Positions 5,420 through 38,506 of a DNA stretch of 64,000 bases are shown piece by piece. The notes beneath the pieces were generated by a model. It had not been told where the DNA came from and searched no databases. It saw only the letters and a program-made list of their open reading frames with translations. The stretch is from Deltaproteobacteria bacterium (lineage in GTDB: Bacteria; Myxococcota_A; Polyangia; Nannocystales; Nannocystaceae), in the NCBI GenBank assembly GCA_016712475.1, contig JADJRA010000001.1:1669414-1733413 (forward strand). The letters are read 5' to 3'. Position 1 is the first letter of the stretch, and each line of letters begins with the position of its first letter. The position numbers were made by a program, and so were the translations under genes.

Positions 5420-6748
5420 TCACTCCTCGAACGGGTTCGCGAACGCGGGGTCGAGGAGGAACTCGTCGTCGGTCATCGACTCGAGGAATGCGATGACGGC
5501 GTCGATCTCTTCGTCGGTCGCGGGGAATCCGCGCACCAGCCCCGACTTGAGCGGGCTGACCCGACCATCGCCGGCGTACGGGCCCGTCTCGGTCACGGTG
5601 CCACCCGCGGCGTAGTGGTCGAGCACGTCACGGAGCGTCGCCTTGCTGCCGTCGTGCATGTACGGCCCGGTCACCGCGATGTTGCGCAGCGACGGGGGCC
5701 GGAACAACCCGCGATGGTCTGGATCGAAGGTCACCTCGAAGAGGCCCTGATCGTACGGCGGATAGCTGCCGTCGCCACCGACGTTGTAGAGCCCGTTGTT
5801 GAAGAACGGATACTGGATCGACCCCGGGTCGGAGTCCGCGTCGCGGTACGACGTGGTGAGGTTGATACCGTTGTGGCAGTGGAAGCACTCGAAGCGCTCG
5901 CCGAAGAACAGCGTCATGCCCTGGCGTTGCTGCTCGGTCAGCGCGTCGTGGTCACCGGCTACGAAGCGATCGTAGGGGCTGCGACCCGGGATCATCGTGC
6001 GACAGAAGCTCGCGAGCGCGAACACGATCTTGTTGACGGTCGCGCCCGACTCGCTCTCGGGGAACGCGGCCGCGAACATCGCTGCGTACATCGGATCGTC
6101 GTCGAAGCGCGCGAGCACCTCGGCCTCGTTGCCATCGTTGATCCCCAGCTCGACCGGATTGTCGTTGCGCAGCGGCACCTGCAGCTGGTCCTCGAGCTCG
6201 AGCAGCACGTTGCTCGCCCACGTGAACGTCGTGCGATACGCGACCATGCCGAGCGCCTGGCTGTTGCGCTCGAGCACAGTACCGGTCGAGCCGCTCGGCG
6301 TCGTCTCGGGGTCTGCAAATCCCAGCTCTTGGAAGTGGCAGTCGGCGCACGACTGCTCGAGGTTTCCCGACAGGCGACGGTCGTAGAACAGATGCCGCCC
6401 GAGCTCGATCTTCTCGGCCGTGAGCGGATTGAACTCGGGAATGTAGGGGGTCTCGAGGTGATCCGGCAGCCGCAGCAGCTCGCGAACGGGATCGACCGGG
6501 ACGCCGCCGCTCGACGAATCGGCGGCGCCCGTGTCGGTCGGCACACCCGTGTCGTCGCTGCTGCCGCTCGTGCTCGTGCTCGTGCTCGTTCCGGTGCCCG
6601 TGCTGCCGCCGCTGCTGCTGCTCGCACTGGCGTGCTCACCCGCGCCGCTGGGCGACGAGCATCCGATCGACGCGCACAGCGCGAGCGCAAGCGACGTTGC
6701 CGCCCGCGCCCGCGGCCGCTCTGCCTCACTGGGCAGCGAACACCGCAT
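5420..6748 (-). CDS. di-heme cytochrome c peroxidase family enzyme (MauG/CCP/MbnH-like)
   Basis: Two CxxCH heme motifs (CADCHF and CFHCHN). Spacing and surrounding residues are typical of the bacterial di-heme CCP/MauG family. Lipoprotein signal LALALCASIGCSS and a Ser/Thr/Gly linker. Confidence 0.85.
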   Translation of the reverse strand: MRCSLPSEAERPRARAATSLALALCASIGCSSPSGAGEHASASSSSGGSTGTGTSTSTSTSGSSDDTGVPTDTGAADSSSGGVPVDPVRELLRLPDHLETPYIPEFNPLTAEKIELGRHLFYDRRLSGNLEQSCADCHFQELGFADPETTPSGSTGTVLERNSQALGMVAYRTTFTWASNVLLELEDQLQVPLRNDNPVELGINDGNEAEVLARFDDDPMYAAMFAAAFPESESGATVNKIVFALASFCRTMIPGRSPYDRFVAGDHDALTEQQRQGMTLFFGERFECFHCHNGINLTTSYRDADSDPGSIQYPFFNNGLYNVGGDGSYPPYDQGLFEVTFDPDHRGLFRPPSLRNIAVTGPYMHDGSKATLRDVLDHYAAGGTVTETGPYAGDGRVSPLKSGLVRGFPATDEEIDAVIAFLESMTDDEFLLDPAFANPFEE

Positions 6749-7847
6749 CTTGATCCGCCGCCGAAACGCCATCGTCGATGTCGACGCCGAACGAGGCAAA
6801 GATGGTCCCACAGTGCGGCTGCATCGGCGACGAGTGACACTCGACGCCGGGCCCCTCGCCGATGATTTCGAACGTCTTGGGGTCATAGATCGGCGCGAGG
6901 AAGTCCACCCCCTCGAGCGCGCGCCCGAGGTCGACCGCGACCACACCGGTCGCGAGATCGAACCCGTCGAGGTCGACCTTCGGTGTGTTCAAGAATCCGC
7001 ACGCGTCTTGGTTCTCGAGCGCGAGCTCGCCATCCCCCGCGCAATCGGTGCTCCCGATGTGCAGGTAGCCGCCGCCCGCGACCGCCTCGGGGTCCTCCAC
7101 GGAGAAGTTGAACACGAAGTGGCGGTAGCCGGTCGCCCACGACCAGTACATCTCGCCCAGCGGCGACGGAGCCGCCTCCGCGCTCGTGGTGTTGATGAGA
7201 TCCTTCATCACGGCCTGCGGCACACCGACGTCGAAGCTGATCCGCGTCACGTCCGCGACCTGCGTCATGCCGGTGATCACGTCGTTCTCGCGCGCGGTGC
7301 CTTCGGCGAAGGCAATCGCGGAGGCTTCGCAATCGCCTTGGGTGTTGCTGGTGAGATCGATGAGCGAGACCTGTCCGGCATCACTCGTGTACTGGAAGTC
7401 GTTGACGTCGAGCTCGACGGTCACCTCGCTGCCGTCGGCGGCGTACATGTGCAGGTTGCTGATGTAGAACCGCAGATCCGCCGGGCTCGCGGTGTGCTCG
7501 CCGTCGGGGCCGAGCCCGGTGATCGTGCTGCCGCAACCGACCTCTTCGCCGTTGGCGACCGCCGCGAACCGCAGGCTGAACGGCGCGAGCGCCTCGCCGG
7601 TCGTGCTTCCGCCGGAGCTGTCGAGCCCGGTCGGGTCGGTCTCGCTCGTCGCCGTGGTGGCGCTGGTGGTGGTGGCGGTCGGGTCTGTCGTGGTCGTCGA
7701 TGCGGTGGTCGCCGAGGTGCTCGACATCGTCGGATCGCCGGTCGAGCCGTCGGCGTTCGTCGAAGTCTCCGCGTCGTCGCCACCGCAAGCGCCGAGGACC
7801 GCAGCAAACAAAAGGGTGGGCGCGAGTGTCCGGCAGTCCATCGTCAT
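6726..7847 (-). CDS. lipoprotein partner of the di-heme enzyme (possibly MbnP-like copper-binding protein)
   Basis: Lipobox LFAAVLGACGG, then a long Ser/Thr/Asp linker and a globular domain of about 270 aa. Overlaps the downstream di-heme gene by about 20 nt (operon). Identity is inferred from gene order only. Confidence 0.55.
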   Translation of the reverse strand: MTMDCRTLAPTLLFAAVLGACGGDDAETSTNADGSTGDPTMSSTSATTASTTTTDPTATTTSATTATSETDPTGLDSSGGSTTGEALAPFSLRFAAVANGEEVGCGSTITGLGPDGEHTASPADLRFYISNLHMYAADGSEVTVELDVNDFQYTSDAGQVSLIDLTSNTQGDCEASAIAFAEGTARENDVITGMTQVADVTRISFDVGVPQAVMKDLINTTSAEAAPSPLGEMYWSWATGYRHFVFNFSVEDPEAVAGGGYLHIGSTDCAGDGELALENQDACGFLNTPKVDLDGFDLATGVVAVDLGRALEGVDFLAPIYDPKTFEIIGEGPGVECHSSPMQPHCGTIFASFGVDIDDGVSAADQDAVFAAQ

Positions 7848-8129
7848 GTGTCGCGACGCTAGCCAGGCCGACCGCGCGCCGCCAGCGAGAATGGGGGGGC
7901 GCGAAAATTCGCCACATGCCTGGTGCCGCGTAGGCTCGAGTCGCGCATTGGGCATCGCAGGTGTTCCGCGAGGTGTTCAAGACTTGGCCAGCGCCGCCGG
8001 AGGGTCGCGGTGGCTGCGATGCCGTCGCGAACAGCGATGCCTCCCGCGTGACAGATCCGCAACGGGCATTCTCCGCCGCGTGCGCTAGCCTCGACGCAGG
8101 TCCGCCTCCGACGGGCAGCGGGTAGGATC

Positions 8130-20909: not shown

Positions 20910-20940
20910 GGACACCCGCGAGCGTGCCAGAAAATCCGGG

Positions 20941-23865
<2,925 letters not shown>

Positions 23866-25477: not shown

Positions 25478-26953
25478 TTGCAGTCCAGTGCGTCCATGCG
25501 GAAGCGATCGATCGTGGAGACCCTGTGGTGCGCATGCCTGGGACTCGTCGCGGCGGCCGGCTGCAGCGCGGCGAGCTTGCAGGGCGACGACCACGGCGGC
25601 GCGTGCCGATCGCCGGCAGGCTGCTTCGGTGACGACGCCGGCACCAGCGGTGCGAGCGGCTGGGATCCCGCCGACGACAGCAGCGACGGCAGTGGAGCCG
25701 CAACCGGCGGCGACGAGGCGACCTCGTCCGAGCCACCACGAGGGCCGCAGCTGCCGTGCGACGTCGCGGCCGCGCTGTCGCGGGCGTGCGGCGAGTGCCA
25801 CGGCGACACGCCGGCCTACGGCGCCCCGATGTCGCTGGTGGACTTCGATGACCTGCACGTGCCCGCGCCGACCGACCCCACCCGCTCGGTGTTCGATCTC
25901 GTCGGCGAGCGCATCACCGCCGACACGAAGATGATGCCACCCGACGACGACATCACCGACGCCGAGCGGGCCGCGTTGTTGTCGTGGATCGAGGCCGGCG
26001 CACCGGCGGATCCCGACGCCCAGTGCGGCGATCTCCCGCCGCCCGACGATGGCCCCGACGTCGGCCCCGAGGCGCTGCCGTGCGAGACCAACTTCGAGGT
26101 GCGTGCACACGCGCCCGGCGGCCAGGGTGGCTTCCAGGTGCCAGCGCAGGGCGCCGACGATCTCTACCAGTGCTTCGCCTTCAAGGCGCCGTTCACCGAG
26201 CCTCGGCAGGCGGTCGCGTGGGCCCCGATCATCGACGACGAGCGCGTCGTGCACCACTGGATCCTCTACCGCACGCCGTCACCGCAGGAGGACGGCGGTG
26301 TGTTCCCCTGCGATGTCTCGCTGCAGGTCTCGGCGGAGTTCGTCGCGGGCTGGGCCCCCGGTGGTGGCAACGTGCTGATGCCCGAGGGCGTCGGCCTCGA
26401 GCTCGGCGATCCCAACGACTGGTACGTGCTGCAGGTCCACTACCACAACACCGCGCACCACCAGGACGCCGTCGACGCCAGCGGCGTGGCCTTCTGCATG
26501 CCGGACGAGCCGCGCCCGCAGACCGCCGGCGTGCTCACCCTCGGCACCACGAGTCTGAACATCCCCGCCGGCGCGGTTGCCCACGAGGAGACCGGCAACT
26601 GTGGCGGGCTGCTGACGCTGTTCTGGCCCGGCGACCTGCACATCATCGGGAGCTCACCGCACATGCACGAGCTCGGCCGTGGCTTCCACACCGAGCTGGT
26701 GCGCGCCGGCGGCGTCACCGAGGTCGTCACGGACGTGCCGGTGTTCAACTTCGAGAGCCAGGGCATGTACTTCAACGCGCCCGAGATCGTGGTGCACCCC
26801 GGCGAGTCCCTGCGCACTACCTGCGTCTTCGACAACCCCGGCGCCGAGATGGTGCACTTCGGTGAAGGCACCACCGACGAGATGTGCTTCAACTTCGTGC
26901 TCGCCTACCCCATCCAGCAGCTCAACAATCGCAACTGCGGGATCGTGTTCTAG
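25478..26953 (+). CDS. secreted protein: N-terminal CxxCH module fused to a copper type II monooxygenase-like (PHM/DBH-like) domain
   Basis: Lipobox LGLVAAAGC. CGECHGD heme-c-type motif near the N-terminus. HHWILY, HYHN, HMHELG and DEMCFNF are spaced like the CuH (H,H..H) and CuM (HxH..M) ligand sets of PHM/DBH. Fold assignment is inference. Confidence 0.6.
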   Translation: MQSSASMRKRSIVETLWCACLGLVAAAGCSAASLQGDDHGGACRSPAGCFGDDAGTSGASGWDPADDSSDGSGAATGGDEATSSEPPRGPQLPCDVAAALSRACGECHGDTPAYGAPMSLVDFDDLHVPAPTDPTRSVFDLVGERITADTKMMPPDDDITDAERAALLSWIEAGAPADPDAQCGDLPPPDDGPDVGPEALPCETNFEVRAHAPGGQGGFQVPAQGADDLYQCFAFKAPFTEPRQAVAWAPIIDDERVVHHWILYRTPSPQEDGGVFPCDVSLQVSAEFVAGWAPGGGNVLMPEGVGLELGDPNDWYVLQVHYHNTAHHQDAVDASGVAFCMPDEPRPQTAGVLTLGTTSLNIPAGAVAHEETGNCGGLLTLFWPGDLHIIGSSPHMHELGRGFHTELVRAGGVTEVVTDVPVFNFESQGMYFNAPEIVVHPGESLRTTCVFDNPGAEMVHFGEGTTDEMCFNFVLAYPIQQLNNRNCGIVF

Positions 26954-27116
26954 TACCTCGACACAGCGATAGTGATGGGTCAGAACGCCGTCATGGCCGC
27001 GACTCCGCAAGGCGCCGTGCCGCCGGAATACCGGGCGTATTTCAAGGTGCGGCAACGCAGCGAGGCGCGGTCAGGGCGGTGTTATGGCCCGTCACTATCG
27101 CTGTGTCGAGGTACTA
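26950..27116. repeat. MITE-like element: 167 bp bounded by 26-bp perfect inverted repeats
   Basis: Left arm CTAGTACCTCGACACAGCGATAGTGA (about 26950-26975) is the exact reverse complement of the right arm (about 27091-27116). The arms are less GC-rich (about 54%) than the genome. The outer CTAG of each arm supplies the stop codon of a convergent flanking gene. Confidence 0.6.
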
Positions 27117-27734
27117 GCCGGGTGCGGTGTTGCGGCGCAGCGGCTCGGGCAGCCACGCGTCGAGCATGCTGTGCGGCGGATCGCCCAGCGGTGTCAGCAG
27201 CAACGGGGTCCGTCGCGTCGCGATCGGCGAGGCCAGTGTGGTCTCGCCGAGCGCGAGCTCGATCCGCTTGGCGGCGCCGGCGACCAGCTCGGCGCCGCTG
27301 GGCAGCCGCGCCGGGCGACCACGCACCGCCAGCACACACTCGATCGCCACGATGATCCGCGAGCGCTCCGAGACGGGCCACGCGCTGGGATCGTGCTCGC
27401 CCCACGGCACGAGCGCGTCCTCGATGAGCGGCAGTCGTCGCGTGACCTCCAGCTGCAGTGACTCGCCCGGTGGCAGAGCGCAGGCGGTCGGCCACACCGG
27501 CATCGCCGTCGCCGCGGCCCACGGCGCGGGCCGAAAGCGCCCTGCGCCCACGACGATGCAATCGTCGCCACCGTGCTGGCAGTGCCACCAAGCCCGAGTG
27601 CCGGTGGGATCGAGCAGCATGGGATGGATCGGCGCACGCGTGTCGTTGTGCAGCACGATCGCGAGTTCGAGGCGATCACCGCGCACGCGTGCGTCGACCC
27701 GGAGCGGCACCGAGGTTGCGACGACGATCGTCAT
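27114..27734 (-). CDS. hypothetical protein (206 aa), candidate second immunity/accessory protein
   Basis: Start overlaps the stop of the upstream gene (ATGA). Composition is coding-like. Confidence 0.5.
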   Translation of the reverse strand: MTIVVATSVPLRVDARVRGDRLELAIVLHNDTRAPIHPMLLDPTGTRAWWHCQHGGDDCIVVGAGRFRPAPWAAATAMPVWPTACALPPGESLQLEVTRRLPLIEDALVPWGEHDPSAWPVSERSRIIVAIECVLAVRGRPARLPSGAELVAGAAKRIELALGETTLASPIATRRTPLLLTPLGDPPHSMLDAWLPEPLRRNTAPG

Positions 27735-28330
27735 GGACTCCGCGACCGCAGTCGACGCAGCTCAACCGGCAAGAGATGATCGACGGTGCTCATGATCCCG
27801 CGCGGCAGCGGATCGGGAAGCACCGCGCGCGCGATCGTGCTGGGCGCGGGCAGCTCGGCCCACGCCCACGCGGCGATCACCGGCTCGACCAGCCCGATGC
27901 CATGGCTGTCGGTGCGCGCGTCGTGGGTGGCCGCGACCGCAGCGACCGGCACGACCTGCACGCCGGCCAGCACCCGCAACACCGGCACGCGCTCGACTTC
28001 GAGGGCGGCGGCGCGGGCGATGGCGGTCTCGGTGAGGCGACGCCCGAGCGAGAGCGTGCGCTGCCAGCCGCGCTCGGGATCGATGCGTTCGCCGCGGGGC
28101 AGGATCGGCGCCGCCGACAGCAAGCCGTCCGGCACGCGCACCTGACCGAACCACACCAGGGCGCCATCGTTGCCGATCGACTGCACAACCGGACGCGCGC
28201 GGGGGCCTTGGCAGTCGCGAACCAACGCGAAGCAGCTGTCCTCGATCCGCAGCCGCAGGCTCAGCCGCAGCTCGCCGCGATCGATCGCGATCGCAGCGTC
28301 GAGTCGGTGGCGAGGGCTGGCTGCGTTCAT
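27731..28330 (-). CDS. hypothetical protein (199 aa), candidate immunity protein
   Basis: Begins 13 nt after the toxin gene stop, same strand. No motif recognised. Confidence 0.5.
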   Translation of the reverse strand: MNAASPRHRLDAAIAIDRGELRLSLRLRIEDSCFALVRDCQGPRARPVVQSIGNDGALVWFGQVRVPDGLLSAAPILPRGERIDPERGWQRTLSLGRRLTETAIARAAALEVERVPVLRVLAGVQVVPVAAVAATHDARTDSHGIGLVEPVIAAWAWAELPAPSTIARAVLPDPLPRGIMSTVDHLLPVELRRLRSRSP

Positions 28331-28343
28331 GGCTCGCGCTCGC

Positions 28344-29735
28344 TCACGGGAACGGCGACGTATAGGTGGTGCGGGTCGGCAGGCCGGTCTCGGTGCGGTA
28401 GCTGTTCTCGGCGGCGACCGTCGAGTACTCCTCGTGGTTCACCCACCGGCTGTCCCAGCCATGCTCGGAGTTGGTCGCGAGCTGGCGACTCGCACCCTCG
28501 GAGTGGTTCGCCGCGTGGTTCATCTCGTGGAAGAGAATCGCGTCCGAGCTGGTGCCCGGCGCGGGATGGGCGTGGCCGCCGGCGGCCCACGGATTGGCGG
28601 GGTGGTTGGCCCAGTTCGAGGGCATGTGCTCGACGGTGGTCGGCGCCCCCGGCATGCGCAGGCCCGTCGGCGTGTCCATGAACGCGTCCCAGTTGCCGTG
28701 ATGATCGGCGACGGCGTTGAGCGGGCCGTTCGCGCCGTGGTACGGCACGATCGTCACCGGCTTGCCCGCGCGTTCGATCCGCTCGAGCGCCTCGCGACCG
28801 GCCCGCGTCCGCGCCATGCGTTCGAGATCGCGGGTGACATCGTCGGCCCAGCCGGTCGGCGCACCGTGGGGGCTCACGTGCACGTGCTGCAAGTTGCGCA
28901 CGTAGCGAGCCGCGGTCAGGCGCCGGAACACCGAGCCGCCCACGCGGAACAACGCCTTGAAGCCCTGGGCGATCGCGAGGCTGAACAGCGACGGGAACGG
29001 GATACCGCCGACCACCACGTTCGCCGAGCCCGGGCCGACCGTGGTGCCGATCATCGGCCCCATCGGCGGATCGCTGGGCTTCGGCGACGAGAAGGTGCAG
29101 TGCTTGGTGATGTCGACCGCGAGCCGAGCCGCGCGCGCGCCCTCGATCCACACCGACGACGAGCCCAGGAAGATCTCGAACATCGGGAAGTAGCCACCGC
29201 ACCAGATGCCGAGGCCCATGTCGCCGCAGCGGGCGGCCGCGCGAGCGTTGACCATCACCGTCGAAGCGCCCGAGAGGATCGGAATCGGGATGATCGGGCC
29301 CATGCTCGGCAGCGGGATCGGCACGGGATTGGGCGGCGTCAGGTTCGGCGGGTGGTTGTGCGCGTGGGGTAGCCCGACGTCGAGGTCCCACATGCGCAAC
29401 GCCGGGAACGCAGGGAACGCAGGCAGGCCGAGCGCGTCGGCGATCTGGCCCATGGTCTGGGTGATCGCCATCTCGACGTGGATCGCCGCCTGCACGCCCG
29501 CGGCCAGGGTCGCGAGCACACCACCGCCACCGCCGGCGTGACCATCGGCGCCCGCCGGGCCACCGGCCTCGCCGCCGCCGGAATCGGCGTGGCCCGACGC
29601 GCGGCCGGCCGCAGCGACCGTGACCCCGCCGGCACCCGATCGACCGGCGTTGACCGTCGCGCGCTCGCCCCACTGCGAGTACAGCTCGGCGGCACGCGAG
29701 AAGCGGATGTTCGACAGATGATCGAGCACGCCCAT
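28344..29735 (-). CDS. PAAR-like (DUF4150-type) protein with C-terminal HExxH metallopeptidase-like toxin domain
   Basis: Real start MGVLDHLS at 29735 inside ORF 28344..30353. Repeats GASTVMVNARAAARCGDMG and GSSSVWIEGARAARLAVDITKHC match the PAAR consensus (G..V.ING.PAAR.GD..HC). Pro-rich LPHAHNHPPNLTPPNPVPIPLP segment. C-terminal ILFHEMNHAANH gives an HExxH motif. Confidence 0.7.
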   Translation of the reverse strand: MGVLDHLSNIRFSRAAELYSQWGERATVNAGRSGAGGVTVAAAGRASGHADSGGGEAGGPAGADGHAGGGGGVLATLAAGVQAAIHVEMAITQTMGQIADALGLPAFPAFPALRMWDLDVGLPHAHNHPPNLTPPNPVPIPLPSMGPIIPIPILSGASTVMVNARAAARCGDMGLGIWCGGYFPMFEIFLGSSSVWIEGARAARLAVDITKHCTFSSPKPSDPPMGPMIGTTVGPGSANVVVGGIPFPSLFSLAIAQGFKALFRVGGSVFRRLTAARYVRNLQHVHVSPHGAPTGWADDVTRDLERMARTRAGREALERIERAGKPVTIVPYHGANGPLNAVADHHGNWDAFMDTPTGLRMPGAPTTVEHMPSNWANHPANPWAAGGHAHPAPGTSSDAILFHEMNHAANHSEGASRQLATNSEHGWDSRWVNHEEYSTVAAENSYRTETGLPTRTTYTSPFP

Positions 29736-29737
29736 GG

Positions 29738-31570
29738 CTACGGCTCCTCGCTCGGCGGCGCGATCGCCCCGTGTCGGCGTGCGGACTCGATCTCGCGCTT
29801 CTTGTCGGCACCCATGCCGAGCTTGTCGAACACCCGCGCCTTGCGCTGGAGGATGTCGGCGCGCGAGCTGTCGGCGGCATCGCCGAAGGTCTCGGGGACC
29901 GCATTGCAGCAGGCCAGCGCGCGATCGAACTCGACCACGGCGTCGACGCGACGCCCGGCCTTGGCGTGCGACTCGGCGATCCACGTGCGCGCGTACGCTT
30001 CGGCGAGGTGGTTGCGCATGTTGGCGTAGTACTTGGCCGCGATCGTGTAGCGCTCGATCGCTCGATCGCAGGCGCCGACCATGAAGTCGCAGTGACCGAT
30101 GCCGGTCATGCCACTGGCCGCGAGCACGGCGTGGTCGTGCTCGACCGCGACCTCGACGCAGCGGGCGTACGCCTCCATCGCCTTGTCGAACGCGGCGCAG
30201 TGGTACAGCGCGCCGCCCATCCCGTACCACGCGCTGGCGATCTCGATCGGCTCCTCGGTCGCGTGCGCGAGCTCGAGGCTCTCGATCTGCAGGGCCATGC
30301 CGCGCTCGGGATCGCCATTGTGCATGCGATAGGCGGCCAGCGCCGAGAGGCACCGCAGTCGTTCGATGGTCGGCAGCTCAGGCTGGGCGAGCTTGTCGGT
30401 CAGGCCCTTCTCGATCACTGGACCGTCGATGCGAAAGTCGAGGGTTCGCATCACCGCGCGCAAGGGCGCGCCAGCGAGGCGCTCGACGCCGGGGGCAACG
30501 GCGCACACACGGACCTTCGCGCTCACCAGTACACGGGCGAGTCGCGCCAGCGAGGCGAGGAACTCCTGCTGCTCGCCCGGTGGCACCTCGTCGTCGATCG
30601 CAGCGGCGAGCACGACGATGAGCTCCTGCTCGGGGTCGAGCACGGTGCGTTGCACCCGGAGCAACAGCTGCGCGAAATGGACCTCGGCACCGTGGCGCCC
30701 GATCGGAGCGGCGATCTCCGCCAACAGTGCAGCGGTGCGATCACCTCGACCCACGCGCTCGGCGTGGGCGTGGACCTGGCGCACGACCGCCTCGGCGACG
30801 CGACCATAGAAGTGAATCGGCCGCCAGAACCTGACCTCCTCGGCATGGACGACCAGCGCGCGGTTGGCCAGCCCGGCCTCGATCAACGCCGAGACCAGCC
30901 ACGCCTGCCCGCGGCGCGGCGCGTCATAGACCAGCATGCGCGGCAGCGGATCGATCATCGCATGGCGGATCGTCGCGCCGATGGCCGCCGCGTCGCCCTG
31001 CCGCAGCGCGACCACGCGCGGCCGCGCGACCTCGACGTCGCGCACGATGCCCGCACTCGGCTCGACCATCAGCAGCAGCTTGAAGCGACCGCTCTCGGTC
31101 GCCTCGGTGATCCGGCCGAGCGTCGCTGCGAGCTCGAGCGAGCGCGCGTCCTCGCGATCGATCGACAGCACCATCACCACGCCCTCGACGAAGGGGTCGA
31201 ACGCGAGCGCCGATTGCTCGGCGTACTCGGCCAGCAGCTGCTCGATCGTGCGACCGCGGGAGCCCGCACGCGGATCGAACGGTGGCGGCGGCTCGATCGT
31301 GATCTCGGCCGCGGCGGCCTCGCGCACGGCGGCATCGACTGCCGCGGCGATTGCCTCGCCGATCGCCGCGCAGTACGACGCGCCATCGACGAAGCGATCG
31401 TCCATCGCCGCCCACAGCCGCCGACCATCGTCGGCGAGCCCGGCGAGCAGCTTCGCCGCCGCGGCCCGCTGATCCGCTGCGGCGCGCAGCTCGAGCACCA
31501 CCGCGTCGGGCTCGGCGAGGAACCCGTGGATGGCAGTGATGCGCGACTGCACGTACTCGGTGAGCGGCAT
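29738..31570 (-). CDS. hypothetical protein with C-terminal TPR-like repeats (610 aa), first gene of the toxin operon
   Basis: Start MPLTEYVQ at 31570 inside ORF 29738..31780. Stop lies 2 nt before the toxin gene start. Confidence 0.55.
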   Translation of the reverse strand: MPLTEYVQSRITAIHGFLAEPDAVVLELRAAADQRAAAAKLLAGLADDGRRLWAAMDDRFVDGASYCAAIGEAIAAAVDAAVREAAAAEITIEPPPPFDPRAGSRGRTIEQLLAEYAEQSALAFDPFVEGVVMVLSIDREDARSLELAATLGRITEATESGRFKLLLMVEPSAGIVRDVEVARPRVVALRQGDAAAIGATIRHAMIDPLPRMLVYDAPRRGQAWLVSALIEAGLANRALVVHAEEVRFWRPIHFYGRVAEAVVRQVHAHAERVGRGDRTAALLAEIAAPIGRHGAEVHFAQLLLRVQRTVLDPEQELIVVLAAAIDDEVPPGEQQEFLASLARLARVLVSAKVRVCAVAPGVERLAGAPLRAVMRTLDFRIDGPVIEKGLTDKLAQPELPTIERLRCLSALAAYRMHNGDPERGMALQIESLELAHATEEPIEIASAWYGMGGALYHCAAFDKAMEAYARCVEVAVEHDHAVLAASGMTGIGHCDFMVGACDRAIERYTIAAKYYANMRNHLAEAYARTWIAESHAKAGRRVDAVVEFDRALACCNAVPETFGDAADSSRADILQRKARVFDKLGMGADKKREIESARRHGAIAPPSEEP

Positions 31571-31731: not shown

Positions 31732-32526
31732 TTAATTCTCGCGCGGGGCCGTACCGCTCGCGCCGTCGCGACAAGGCCACAGGCCCACGAGGTCGTCGCC
31801 GCGGCGGTACATCCAGCGCATCACCTCGCGCTCGACGAGGTCGTCGTCGTCCACGCGCTGACGAGCATACGCGGGGCCCTTGGGGTCGAGCGCCATGAAT
31901 GCAAAGAACCGTTCCGAGCCCTCACCGCACGGTGCGTCGAGGCGATAGACATCGAGGGCATCGTCTTGCCGCTGCCCGACTCCGAACGCGCGGCGCAGCG
32001 GTGCGCAGGCCCGCGCGGCCTCGATCAGTCGGTTCATCTCGCGCTCGTGACTGTCGCCGTCGAGCAGCGGCACCTTGCTGCGCAGGGCCGCGGCACAGGG
32101 GTACTCCGCGCAATCGACCACCTCGAGCTCCGCGTCGATGCCGCAGGCCTCGAAGGCCTCGTCGACCGTCGCGGACCACTGCTCGGGCGACTCGATGCCC
32201 GCCGGCTCGGGGAACTCGTGGCGCACCGCAGCCCGCTCGCGGCGAGACTCGGCGAGCTCCGACTCGCACCAGCGTTGCCGCAGCTCGAGTTCCTCGCACG
32301 AGGCGTCACGCCCGAGCGGGCGCCCGACCGGCGCGCACACCAGCGATCGCAACGCGCGTGGAACCGGCTGCGCTTGCGCGGGCTCGGGCTCATCGGGGGC
32401 CGAGGTCGGCGGGATCGCGTCGATGGGCGCAGGCCACACGCAGCGCCCAAGCGCGAATGCGGACCCCAGTGCGAGCACGCCGATCGCTGCGCGCAGTACA
32501 GACGACACGTGCGATGGCGTGGACAC
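31732..32526 (-). CDS. secreted hypothetical protein
   Basis: Signal peptide MSTPSHVSSVLRAAIGVLALGSAFALG. 264 aa, acidic. Confidence 0.5.
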   Translation of the reverse strand: MSTPSHVSSVLRAAIGVLALGSAFALGRCVWPAPIDAIPPTSAPDEPEPAQAQPVPRALRSLVCAPVGRPLGRDASCEELELRQRWCESELAESRRERAAVRHEFPEPAGIESPEQWSATVDEAFEACGIDAELEVVDCAEYPCAAALRSKVPLLDGDSHEREMNRLIEAARACAPLRRAFGVGQRQDDALDVYRLDAPCGEGSERFFAFMALDPKGPAYARQRVDDDDLVEREVMRWMYRRGDDLVGLWPCRDGASGTAPREN

Positions 32527-35596: not shown

Positions 35597-38506
35597 TCAC
35601 GGCCGCACGAGCGTCGCGAGCCACGCGTCGATCTCGGCGCGCTCGGGCGCGGCCGGATCGTAGAGCGCTTGCGCGGCACGGGCGAGCTCGTCCACGTCGG
35701 ATCGCGAGCCGCCGCTGGCCCAGGTCGCCTCGGCGAGTCGGCGGCGTGCGGTCGCGCGCTGATCGGCCGACGCACCGCCGCGATCGAGACGCTCCTGCGC
35801 CTCACGAGCCGTGGCAAGGGCCGCGTCGGCGTCGCCCAGCTGCAGCTGCGCGGTGCACAGATCGAGCAGGACCGCGCCGAGGTCGGGATGATCGGGCTGC
35901 GTCTTTGCCAGCAAAGTGCGAGCGCGCTCGAAATGGGCGAGCGCCGCGGCCGGGCGCTCGAACGCGAGCTCGTCGTTGCCCAGGCCCACGAGGATTGGCG
36001 GCAGCAAGGTGTGCGCGGGGCCCAGCTTCTCCTCGATGATCGCGAGCGCCCGCCGGTGATGCGCGAGCGCGTCGTCGAGGCGACCCAACGCTCGTTCGGC
36101 GTCGCCGAGGTTGCCGAGGGCGTTGGCCAGCTCGGGATGGTCCGGCCCGAGCGCGCGCTCGAAGATCGCCACGGCGCGCTCGAGCTGCCGCGCGGCGTCG
36201 GCCGGCCGCTTCGCACTGCGCGTGACGACGCCCAGATTGGTGAGGCTCTGCGCAACGCGGGGATGATCGGGCCCGAAGGCGGCCTCGTTGACCGCGAGCA
36301 CGCGCGCCATCAATGCGGCAGCCTGCTCGAGATCGCCGCGACGCCAGTACACCTCGGCCTCGTTCGACAGCGCGTTGGCGACGTCAGGGTGATCCTCGCC
36401 GAAGGTGGCGACGAAGATCGCTCGCGCCCGCTCGTAGCTCGCGAGCGCCTCGTCGAGGCGGCCGAGATCGACGAGCGTGGTGCCGAGGTTGTTGAGCGAC
36501 AACGCCACGTCGGGGTGCTCGGGACCAAGCCGCTCGCGGAGGATCGCGAGTGCACGCGTGTGATGGGCGAGCGCATCGTCGAGGCGGCCGAGATCGCGGG
36601 CCATCACGCCGAGCTCGTTGTGCATCCGCGCACCGCGGAGGTCACCCTCCTCGCCGAGTCGCTCGACCAGCGACTCGGCCCAGCGCGCCCACAGCTGGCC
36701 TTCGGCGGGCCGCACCAGTCGCAGCGCGACGACCACCGCGAGGCGGCGCGCCGCATCGGCCGCCTCGGCATCCTCGCCCAGCTCGACGGCGGCGAGCACC
36801 GCCTGGGTCAGCTCGCGCTCGGCATCGTCGTGACGGCCGACCCTCTCGAGCAGTGCCCCGACACGCGCGCGGCTGCGGACGATGAGCGCCGGATCACCGT
36901 GCGCCTCGGCGTCGGCGAGCAAGCCCTCGGCCATCGCGAGCGCGGGTTCGGCACGGCCTGCCGCCTGCAGCGCATCGACGCGGACGAGCTGCCGTTCGAT
37001 CGCGAGATCGCTCGCATCGCGCTCGGCCGGGGCATGACGAACCACCCAACCGACGTCCTGGCAGCGCTCGACCGGGGGCAGCTCGGCCGCGAGCAGCAGT
37101 GCCTTGCCGACGAACTTCCGGTCGGCCTCACGCGCGACCTCGAGAAGCGCCGCGAACGACTCGGCCTCGAGGTCCAGACAGTCGCGCATTCCGGCGACGA
37201 TCGCAGGGGGCTGCGTGCCGTCCAGCCCCGCACGGCACGCATCGACGCGCGCGGCGGACCAGCGTGCGGCATAGTCGTCGATGGCGGGCGAGAACTTCGC
37301 GATCGTCGGGGTCGCAAACGGCACCTCGGTGGTGCGCATCGCGGTCTCGACCTCGGCACGGATGCGATCGTCCCAGTGCTCGTCGATGGCATCGCCCTCG
37401 CGATCGCAACCTGCGAGCGCGCGCACGTGGGCGATCCGCCACGCCGCCGCGCCGCCGCCGGCGAGCGCGAGCAACCCACCCACCGCCAACCAACGTCGAC
37501 GGCGCTGTCGCGGATCGCGGGCGAGGGCAGCGAGCAGCGCATCGAGATCTTCGAAGCGGTCGGCCGGCGCCAGGGCAAGCCCGCGATCGAGCACCCGGCG
37601 TACGAACGTGGGAACGCCAGTCGCGAGCTTCGGTTCGACACGTCGGCCCGAGAGCACCGCGGCCGCCAGTTCGGGCAGCGAACGCGCGGCGAACGGACGA
37701 CTGCCGTACACGCCCTCCCACAGCGCCACGCAGAAGCTGAACTGATCCGAGCGGGGATCGATCGGCATGCTCTGGAACTGCTCGGGGGACATATACGCTG
37801 GCGTACCCACCGTCGTGCCGGTGCGCGTCAGATCGGTGGCGAGCGCGTCGGTGCGCGGCCGCGGCCCGTCGCTCGTGATCTCGTCGACGTGCTGCACCCG
37901 CACGAGCCCGAAGTCCATGACGAGCACGCGACCGTCGTCGCCGACCATCACGTTGTCGGGCTTGAAGTCGCGATGCACGAGCCCCTTGCGATGCGCGGCC
38001 GCGAGTCCGCGTCCGGCCTGCATCATGACGGCGATCACCTCGCTCCACGTGCGCGGACTCGCCTGCAGCCACTGCCGGAGCGTCACGCCCTGCACCAGCT
38101 CCATCGCGAGAAACACCTGGCCCTCGTGCGTGCCGACGTCATGCACGGCGATGACATTGGGGTGGCTCACCCGCGCCATCGCCTGGGCCTCGCGCAGCAG
38201 TCGATCGTCGACGCCGGGGCTGGCGGCCGCCTGGTCCTCGTCGCCGAAGAGCCGATGCATGAGCCGCCCCAGCACGCGGGCCTCGCCGAGCTCCGCATGC
38301 AGTCGATGCAGCAGTTTGAGCGCGACCCGGCGGTCGAGCTCGGGATCGTACGCCGCATAGACGGTCCCCATGCCGCCCGCACCGAGCCGATCGAGCACCA
38401 CGTAGCGACCGATCGTCTGGCCGCGCGCGAAGCCCTCGCCGCGTGGGCGGGCACCGGTGCCGTCGGCCGGCCCCGAGCCTTTGGTCGTCTCGGTCTCGCC
38501 GCTCAC
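35597..38506 (-). CDS. Ser/Thr protein kinase with TM segment and C-terminal TPR repeats
   Basis: Kinase motifs LGAGGMGTVYAAYD, HRDFKPDNVMV, DFGLVR, GTPAYMSPEQ. Hydrophobic segment WLAVGGLLALAGGGAAAW. About 450 aa of TPRs. Start taken as GTG (VSGETETT) at 38506 with GGCGGAAG upstream. The long Arg-rich N-terminal extension in the track ORF is doubtful. Confidence 0.85.
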   Translation of the reverse strand: MSGETETTKGSGPADGTGARPRGEGFARGQTIGRYVVLDRLGAGGMGTVYAAYDPELDRRVALKLLHRLHAELGEARVLGRLMHRLFGDEDQAAASPGVDDRLLREAQAMARVSHPNVIAVHDVGTHEGQVFLAMELVQGVTLRQWLQASPRTWSEVIAVMMQAGRGLAAAHRKGLVHRDFKPDNVMVGDDGRVLVMDFGLVRVQHVDEITSDGPRPRTDALATDLTRTGTTVGTPAYMSPEQFQSMPIDPRSDQFSFCVALWEGVYGSRPFAARSLPELAAAVLSGRRVEPKLATGVPTFVRRVLDRGLALAPADRFEDLDALLAALARDPRQRRRRWLAVGGLLALAGGGAAAWRIAHVRALAGCDREGDAIDEHWDDRIRAEVETAMRTTEVPFATPTIAKFSPAIDDYAARWSAARVDACRAGLDGTQPPAIVAGMRDCLDLEAESFAALLEVAREADRKFVGKALLLAAELPPVERCQDVGWVVRHAPAERDASDLAIERQLVRVDALQAAGRAEPALAMAEGLLADAEAHGDPALIVRSRARVGALLERVGRHDDAERELTQAVLAAVELGEDAEAADAARRLAVVVALRLVRPAEGQLWARWAESLVERLGEEGDLRGARMHNELGVMARDLGRLDDALAHHTRALAILRERLGPEHPDVALSLNNLGTTLVDLGRLDEALASYERARAIFVATFGEDHPDVANALSNEAEVYWRRGDLEQAAALMARVLAVNEAAFGPDHPRVAQSLTNLGVVTRSAKRPADAARQLERAVAIFERALGPDHPELANALGNLGDAERALGRLDDALAHHRRALAIIEEKLGPAHTLLPPILVGLGNDELAFERPAAALAHFERARTLLAKTQPDHPDLGAVLLDLCTAQLQLGDADAALATAREAQERLDRGGASADQRATARRRLAEATWASGGSRSDVDELARAAQALYDPAAPERAEIDAWLATLVRP

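Follow-up and report, generated by a model that had tools for sequence, protein, structure and literature searches.

A probable orphan type VI secretion effector module in a Nannocystaceae genome, combining a PAAR-M91 protein with candidate helper and immunity genes

Four genes lie together on the minus strand at positions 27114 to 31570 of a 64,000-nucleotide (nt) stretch of DNA from a member of the Nannocystaceae (GenBank assembly GCA_016712475.1, contig JADJRA010000001.1, positions 1,669,414 to 1,733,413 of the forward strand; the whole stretch is hereafter called the window). They had been singled out, from the sequence alone, as a candidate polymorphic-toxin operon, and this original prediction is followed up here with profile searches, structure models and the comparison of homologous loci. 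The central gene encodes a protein with a PAAR region and a C-terminal Peptidase_M91 (Tox-HopH1) domain. The module as a whole is, with good confidence, an orphan effector cassette of a type VI secretion system (T6SS), in which the upstream gene would encode a helper and the two downstream genes immunity proteins.

Locus organization

The module consists of the following genes, listed in the order of transcription, with protein lengths in amino acids (aa).

29738..31570, minus strand: adaptor/chaperone-like protein, 610 aa (open reading frame translation)
28344..29735, minus strand: candidate PAAR-M91 effector, 463 residues or 464 codons including the stop (Pfam, homologues)
27731..28330, minus strand: putative immunity-family paralogue 1, 199 aa (iterative hidden Markov model membership)
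27114..27734, minus strand: putative immunity-family paralogue 2, 206 aa (iterative hidden Markov model membership)

A check of the open reading frames (ORFs) confirmed the four minus-strand genes with the coordinates originally given, as well as their spacing: 2 nt separate the 610-aa gene from the toxin gene, 13 nt separate the toxin gene from the 199-aa gene, and the 199-aa and 206-aa genes overlap in an ATGA. The central protein had been described as 464 aa long; its coordinates hold, and the length is corrected to 463 residues. For the 610-aa gene an alternative GTG start would give a protein of 680 aa reaching position 31780, and one annotation of a metagenome-assembled genome (MAG) uses a similar length of 678 aa; the 610-aa start is the supported one, because homologues measure 599-616 aa and begin MPLT.

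All four ORFs are intact and show a strong coding bias in GC content at third codon positions (GC3). The same gene order is kept in related genomes, where identity to the window ranges from 82% to ~50% for the toxin, from 65% to 30% for the adaptor-like protein and from 45% to ~30% for the small downstream proteins, and this recurrence indicates that the four genes are real rather than chance ORFs. An identical toxin with flanking genes at 99.2-100% identity is found in GCA_016709225.1, in three further assemblies and in one sequencing-run assembly, and the nearest distinct relatives of the locus are Nannocystaceae MAGs. GC content is ~70% throughout the window, and the composition profile contains no local GC deviation by which the module would stand out as recently inserted foreign DNA. 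A promoter and terminator scan gave nothing informative, the DNA being 70% GC, and a reading of the module as a defense system found no match in PADLOC for any of the four proteins.

Domain composition of the central protein

The central protein is divided into an N-terminal extension, a PAAR core and a C-terminal protease domain, located as follows.

29406..29735, minus strand: N-terminal extension, aa 1-110 (alignment of homologues)
28986..29405, minus strand: PAAR core, aa ~111-250 (Pfam and invariant columns)
28362..28850, minus strand: Peptidase_M91 / Tox-HopH1 domain, the putative toxin, aa 296-458 (Pfam)
28515..28529, minus strand: HExxH zinc-binding/catalytic motif, H403-E404-M-N-H407 (translation; invariant in 30 homologues)

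The C-terminal domain matches Peptidase_M91 in Pfam with 38.3 bits against a gathering threshold of 25, over profile positions 13-176 of 176. The original prediction had guessed at a Zn-metallopeptidase, which this match bears out, while considering the HExxH tail to resemble nothing recognizable; the tail is in fact the known Peptidase_M91/Tox-HopH1 domain. Among 30 aligned PAAR-M91 proteins the residues H403, E404, H407, G414, E435, E436 and R447 do not vary, N444 and Y446 hardly vary, and position 443 is either E or D. With H403ExxH407 and E443-N444 thus conserved, the domain fits the 'HExxH, [DE]N' signature described for Tox-HopH1 (PMC3482391). Profile searches of the toxin against the PDB returned BoNT-like light chains (E = 0.0025) and beyond these only PAAR chains, an outcome that agrees with earlier reports on M91 domains (PMC9846239, PMC13556075). 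In a search of 5.8 billion proteins 238 relatives were found, many of which are named 'M91 family zinc metallopeptidase' or 'Zn-binding protein involved in type VI secretion'. Judged by these matches and residues, the M91 domain is most likely a toxin with zinc endopeptidase activity.

Tox-HopH1 is the polymorphic-toxin name for the NleD/HopH1, or M91, family and was described in 2012 by Zhang et al., whose survey includes the T6SS among its delivery routes and assigns it no immunity family (PMC3482391). The founding members of M91, NleD and HopH1, are effectors of the type III secretion system (T3SS) that cleave host proteins (PMC3482391, PMC9846239). A divergent relative in one of the homologous loci compared below (L030:1743-3824) has HEGLH in place of the usual HExNH and carries, as a C-terminal tail behind the protease domain, about ten acidic repeats of the EIP/EMP type (APTEEIPIxD...); it is still trailed by the small downstream family.

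The PAAR_motif family (PF05488) is matched at aa 152-205 with 28.2 bits against a gathering threshold of 27, and PAAR-type motifs occur at aa 111-114 (PALR), aa 166-169 (AAAR) and aa 201-204 (RAAR). The sequences quoted in the original prediction, NARAAARCGDM (aa 163-173), GSSSVWIEGARAARLAVDITKHC (aa 191-213) and the HExxH-containing ILFHEMNHAANH (aa 400-411), are all present. Seven histidines and cysteines of the PAAR region, H124, H126, H128, C170, C179, H212 and C213, are invariant in the 30 aligned proteins, and in the PDB profile search the PAAR chains 4jiv_D/4jiw_D were matched weakly (E = 0.016). The NCBIfam equivalog for T6SS PAAR proteins, NF033420, is matched weakly, with 27 bits against a cut-off of 124, and the region is therefore best described, on present profiles, as a divergent PAAR subclass rather than a canonical stand-alone PAAR protein. 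It shares with the canonical form (4jiv_D/4jiw_D; NF033420) the PAAR-type motifs, conserved His/Cys ligands and the vgrG linkage of its homologues, but differs in a proline-rich insert (PHxHxHPPN..PP..P..P), in the 110-aa N-terminal extension and in the C-terminal toxin domain. The N-terminal module had been called PAAR-like of the DUF4150 type; the PAAR assignment stands, and the DUF4150/PAAR-like label (PF13665) was rejected, as it is absent among the Pfam matches even at E <= 1.

The N-terminal extension opens with a clade-specific MGxLDHLSNxRY, followed by a Gly/Ala-rich low-complexity stretch and, at aa ~73-105, by a moderately hydrophobic helix-like segment that is conserved family-wide. 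This segment and another behind the PAAR core, at aa ~238-256, are the most hydrophobic stretches of the protein, with Kyte-Doolittle maxima of 1.61 (peaking at aa 73) and 1.64, respectively, over 19 residues. As speculation, both segments may be considered candidate adaptor-binding sites, and the N-terminal extension as a whole might be the adaptor-binding region.

Homologous loci and linkage to type VI secretion

A scan of one genome per species yielded 41 loci with the PAAR module, to which context look-ups added five; individual loci are referred to by number (L005, L006 and so on). Across more than 40 loci the PAAR core is 55-91% identical and the C-termini vary, comprising M91, Gln_amidase, metallopeptidases of the DUF6782/M78 type, RHS+DUF6531 in proteins of 1,400-1,700 aa, and several unassigned domains. 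A constant PAAR module thus bears variable C-terminal toxins, which is the make-up of a polymorphic-toxin family. Of the 35 loci with 4.5 kb or more of sequence on the upstream side, 20 have a VgrG gene as their immediate upstream neighbor on the same strand, and five more have one elsewhere in the locus; the two VgrGs that were scanned score 549 and 607 bits against TIGR03361, the T6SS TssI/VgrG model. In L047 the order is vgrG, TPR (tetratricopeptide repeat) protein, PAAR-M91 and a 186-aa gene, and in L049 vgrG, TPR protein and PAAR-toxin are followed by TssB, TssC, Hcp, ImpE, TssE and TssF inside 10 kb. From the vgrG and T6SS core genes beside homologues it follows that this PAAR class is T6SS-linked, and the architecture of a T6SS-delivered polymorphic toxin that had been proposed for the window protein is upheld by these neighbors and by the variable C-termini.

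Some loci depart from the usual arrangement. An Enhygromyxa MAG (L010:7619-9877) has VgrG downstream of the adaptor-like gene, PAAR-M91 and immunity-like genes rather than upstream, which is an unusual order, and a Gemmatimonadales MAG (L033) carries three VgrG genes within 14 kb of one contig (6314-8383, 12084-14042 and 18421-20277), one of them ahead of a TPR-adaptor and PAAR pair. The PAAR-M91 module of L047 lies beside several DDE transposases and an integrase, and that of L050 directly behind a transposase, which suggests that PAAR-M91 cassettes move.

The two small downstream proteins

Neither the 199-aa nor the 206-aa protein has a match in Pfam, NCBIfam or PADLOC, in keeping with their first description as two small genes without recognizable relatives, and a direct BLASTP comparison between them is not significant (E = 0.41). 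They are nevertheless diverged paralogues of one family rather than two different proteins. In L006, as in L007, one single downstream ORF is matched by both, phmmer links the 199-aa protein to the L005 orthologue of the 206-aa protein (E = 7.9e-5), the two align end to end with a common C-terminal D..LP.ELRR motif, and a hidden Markov model (HMM) started with five sequences, all taken from the window, L005 and L007, expanded to 12 and later to 18 members before it converged. All 18 members sit immediately downstream of M91-type toxins, including the divergent HEGLH toxin of L030.

The family tracks the toxin domain and not the PAAR module. It is found behind 15 of 19 M91 loci and behind none of the ~22 loci with other toxins (Fisher p ~6e-8, a value inflated by the relatedness of the loci), and L050, which was outside the training set, matched with E = 2.4e-15 and raised the count to 16 of 20 M91 loci. 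The M91 loci with the family come from Myxococcota, Planctomycetota, Gemmatimonadota and others. A reverse profile search of 1.84 billion representatives returned 11 members, a small number that is put down to the family diverging too fast for a narrow profile; contigs were fetched for two of them, and both genes lie 2-10 nt behind PAAR-M91 genes. A word-indexed homology search with the 206-aa protein found four close relatives.

L005 and L013 share with the window a tandem arrangement of the small genes. Comparison of the window with L005 gives 87% identity for the toxin domain and 40-45% for the small proteins. No signal peptide or transmembrane segment was detected in any family member, and a confidently predicted fold models the family as all-beta. 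An LPLxE loop is conserved in it, with E105 of the 206-aa protein invariant. Because it follows M91, is separated from the toxin gene by tight gaps or overlaps, forms tandem arrays and diverges faster than the toxin, the family behaves, as far as these comparisons go, as an immunity family of M91 toxins. The original prediction had taken the downstream genes to be immunity-like and expected them to be conserved beside homologous toxins, as is the case; it had also suggested an undescribed toxin/immunity pair, which holds for the uncurated immunity family and not for the toxin with its known M91 domain.

Among the M91 loci without the family, L011 carries, in place of it, an ORF for a 206-aa Cys-rich, lipoprotein-like product, and L041 an ORF of 146 aa.

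The upstream TPR protein

The 610-aa protein is composed of an N-terminal alpha/beta region, an insertion at aa ~125-320 and a C-terminal TPR domain at aa ~400-580. The insertion of ~200 aa is found in the window protein, in its Nannocystaceae relatives and in one Longimicrobiales locus, and the usual form of the family is ~400 aa long. Matches in Pfam and NCBIfam are sub-threshold only (TPR, SNAP, LcrH), and AfsR, NsdA and Rap-type proteins are among the sub-threshold and fold matches. The Pfam scan gave no match to the DUF4123, DUF1795 or DUF2169 profiles, and neither Pfam nor NCBIfam showed a DNA-binding or signaling domain. A word-indexed homology search found five close relatives. A structure model built from a six-sequence alignment is of medium quality, and its N-terminal alpha/beta part had no informative fold match.

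Of the 40 loci with room for it, 38 encode a homologue of this protein directly upstream of the PAAR gene, whatever the toxin domain, and the family is spread over Myxococcota, Planctomycetota, Gemmatimonadota, Acidobacteriota, Zixibacteria and Alphaproteobacteria. The protein had been described as TPR-like with its role left open; the TPR character holds for its C-terminal domain, and the role can be narrowed to that of a positional partner of the PAAR class and not of the toxin domain. The slot between vgrG and PAAR, the fidelity to the chassis rather than the toxin and the 2-nt spacing to the effector gene all recall known T6SS adaptors, and for these reasons we consider it moderately probable that the 610-aa protein is an adaptor or chaperone of this PAAR class.

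With the known adaptors DUF4123 (Tap/Tec), DUF1795 (Eag) and DUF2169 the family shares its location between vgrG and the PAAR/effector gene, its specificity for chassis rather than toxin and its translational closeness to the effector. An analogy with Eag chaperones may extend to the partner effector, which has an N-terminal extension and a moderately hydrophobic segment ahead of PAAR. In contrast to the known adaptors, to which it has no sequence or fold relationship, the TPR family combines an alpha/beta N-terminal region with a TPR domain of the LGN/KLC type, and no Pfam or NCBIfam model reaches threshold for it. A literature search for a described TPR-type T6SS adaptor found none, its coverage being incomplete and no proof of absence. 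One cluster representative among the homologues (P0125, 637 aa) has a different, longer N-terminus with precomputed Pfam matches (PF25174, PF23381, PF25175) that are absent from other members, and could be either a fusion or the result of a chimeric gene call.

Proposed function and alternative explanations

We propose a model of the cassette in which secretion, toxicity, neutralization, the adaptor role and the protease's compartment and substrate are inferences. The PAAR core of the 463-aa protein would cap a trimer of VgrG whose gene lies elsewhere in the genome, and the effector would ride the T6SS spike into a neighboring cell, where its M91 domain would act as the toxin. The 610-aa protein would serve as a dedicated adaptor or chaperone, whose C-terminal TPR groove probably accommodates a stretch of the effector that is extended or hydrophobic, and would help to load the effector onto VgrG. 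The two small paralogues would be cytoplasmic all-beta immunity proteins that guard the producing cell and its kin, with binding to the protease as the probable means. The lack of an export signal in the immunity proteins makes the target cell's cytoplasm the probable place of action of the protease, a location that we favor by a slight degree.

Several observations weigh against this model. No vgrG was found in the window by tblastn, including the part at ~55-64 kb, which was checked by VgrG tblastn only, and no T6SS core family appears in the precomputed annotation of ~18-40 kb or in Pfam scans of ~0.5-17 kb and 39-55 kb. The module is thus an orphan within the scanned parts of the window (~1-55 kb, and 55-64 kb by VgrG tblastn), in agreement with the original prediction, which had noted that the window contains no T6SS core gene. 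An adjacent vgrG is missing from the whole Nannocystaceae-type clade with the long adaptor-like protein (window, L006, L008, L011, L042, L046 and L050). The PAAR_motif match is marginal, with homologues scoring 21-35 bits, and the NCBIfam equivalog cut-off is not reached. Four of the 20 M91 loci (L008, L011, L015 and L041) lack the all-beta family, and their toxins may be unprotected or paired with other types of immunity. Because of the phylogenetic relatedness of the compared loci, the co-occurrence counts overstate independence. The adaptor role is deduced from gene position and fold. Finally, the only T6SS M91 domain studied experimentally acts in the periplasm and is countered by a membrane-anchored immunity protein (PMC13556075), which speaks against a cytoplasmic site.

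The absence of vgrG and T6SS genes from the scanned parts of the window, together with the lack of an adjacent vgrG in the long-adaptor clade and the transposase ahead of the L050 module, could mean that the cassette is a stranded relic in a genome without a T6SS, or that its PAAR caps the spike of an extracellular contractile injection system (eCIS) or of a phage-tail-like particle. We regard this as improbable: the ORFs are intact with strong GC3 coding bias, the catalytic and Zn-ligand residues are invariant, an identical toxin with near-identical flanks recurs in four other assemblies, and the informative neighbors of homologues are T6SS-type VgrG and TssB/C/Hcp/E/F, not eCIS genes. Orphan PAAR/effector modules away from the main cluster are, moreover, normal in T6SS genomes, as for example in S. 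bongori (PMC9635880). That the M91 domain is instead an anti-eukaryotic effector, directed like NleD and HopH1 at, for example, amoebal or other grazers, with the small genes as unrelated accessories, would agree with the nature of these founding members as T3SS effectors that cleave host proteins, with the lack of an immunity family for Tox-HopH1 in the account of Zhang et al. (PMC3482391) and with the four M91 loci devoid of the small family. The small family is, however, tightly coupled to the toxin, with gaps of 2-13 nt or overlaps, and follows M91 but never other toxins on the same PAAR chassis; its tandem arrays and its low identity, relative to that of the toxin, in the comparison of the window with L005 are typical of immunity genes, and an M91 T6SS effector has been found to be antibacterial (PMC13556075). 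An anti-eukaryotic role therefore appears very improbable.

For the 610-aa protein a different function has a greater, although still small, chance of being correct, namely that of a regulator or scaffold, or of a second, structurally unrelated immunity or anti-toxin component. The protein is unlike DUF4123, DUF1795 and DUF2169, and TPR domains are common in regulators, with AfsR, NsdA and Rap-type proteins among its matches. Against such a function stand the lack of a DNA-binding or signaling domain and the position in the exact vgrG-to-PAAR slot of known adaptors, 2 nt from the effector gene; its co-occurrence with the PAAR chassis irrespective of toxin argues against an immunity role in particular.

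Comparison with known systems

Salmonella Dublin has an antibacterial Rhs-PAAR-M91 T6SS effector that the product of an adjacent gene neutralizes (PMC13556075). This pair, SED_RS06335/SED_RS06340 of SPI-19 (PMC13556075, PMC8867033), resembles the window module in its N-terminal PAAR, its C-terminal M91 domain with HExxH and an immunity gene (putative in the window) directly downstream, and the Salmonella M91 domain is required for interbacterial killing. The Salmonella effector is a 1,406-aa Rhs protein within a T6SS island, whereas the window effector has no Rhs cage and its locus is an orphan. Toxicity of the Salmonella effector is confined to the periplasm, and its immunity protein contains a transmembrane domain, whereas the candidate immunity proteins of the window are predicted to be soluble and all-beta, occur in two copies and have no export signals. 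Unlike the Salmonella Dublin pair, the window module also encodes, at its upstream end, an adaptor-like protein whose C-terminal domain is of the TPR type. With Tox-HopH1 as defined by Zhang et al. in 2012 (PMC3482391) and with Tpe2 of P. aeruginosa (PMC9846239) the window toxin shares HExxH and [DE]N and a C-terminal placement behind a trafficking domain, whereas NleD and HopH1 are stand-alone T3SS effectors against eukaryotes.

The toxin thus belongs to a known type, the PAAR- or Rhs-linked Tox-HopH1/M91 effectors that were predicted in 2012 and of which one has since been validated. PAAR-fused M91 proteases are a recognized and barely studied class of T6SS effectors, to which the toxin itself adds little. 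Outside the curated libraries are the adaptor-like family with its C-terminal TPR domain and the all-beta candidate immunity family. The latter gives a comparative definition of an immunity family for Tox-HopH1/M91, for which the 2012 survey had none and for which Pfam and NCBIfam hold no model; the TPR helper, found in many phyla in the slot that separates vgrG from this PAAR class, is a promising candidate as a new family of adaptors or chaperones. Two tentative readings, given a little less than an even chance, are that the TPR family is an undescribed class of T6SS adaptor or chaperone for a divergent PAAR and that the ~190-aa all-beta family is a new protease-inhibitor-type immunity to cytoplasmic M91 toxins. 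If some M91 toxins do act in the bacterial cytoplasm, the question arises which bacterial protein they cut.

Neighboring genes

Just upstream of the adaptor-like gene, an ORF of 264 aa (31732..32526, minus strand) lacks homologues in all related loci and has no recorded Pfam match; it is apparently species-specific and outside the module. The module is flanked at ~4.5 kb and ~4 kb by two paralogous Ser/Thr protein kinases of ~970 aa with long TPR arrays (20934..23849 and 35597..38506, both minus strand), which share 36% identity over 936 aa; nothing indicates that the kinase pair forms the borders of a mobile island. Farther away, an MbnP-like protein adjoins a di-haem cytochrome c peroxidase (CCP_MauG, MbnH-like) at 5420..7955 on the minus strand, a copper-related MbnPH pair without an obvious methanobactin operon. 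Convergent to the last putative immunity gene, a Cu2_monooxygen/Cu2_monoox_C protein of ~485 aa is encoded at 25478..26953 on the plus strand; it is a PHM/DBH-like copper monooxygenase of a family that, to our knowledge, is uncommon in bacteria.

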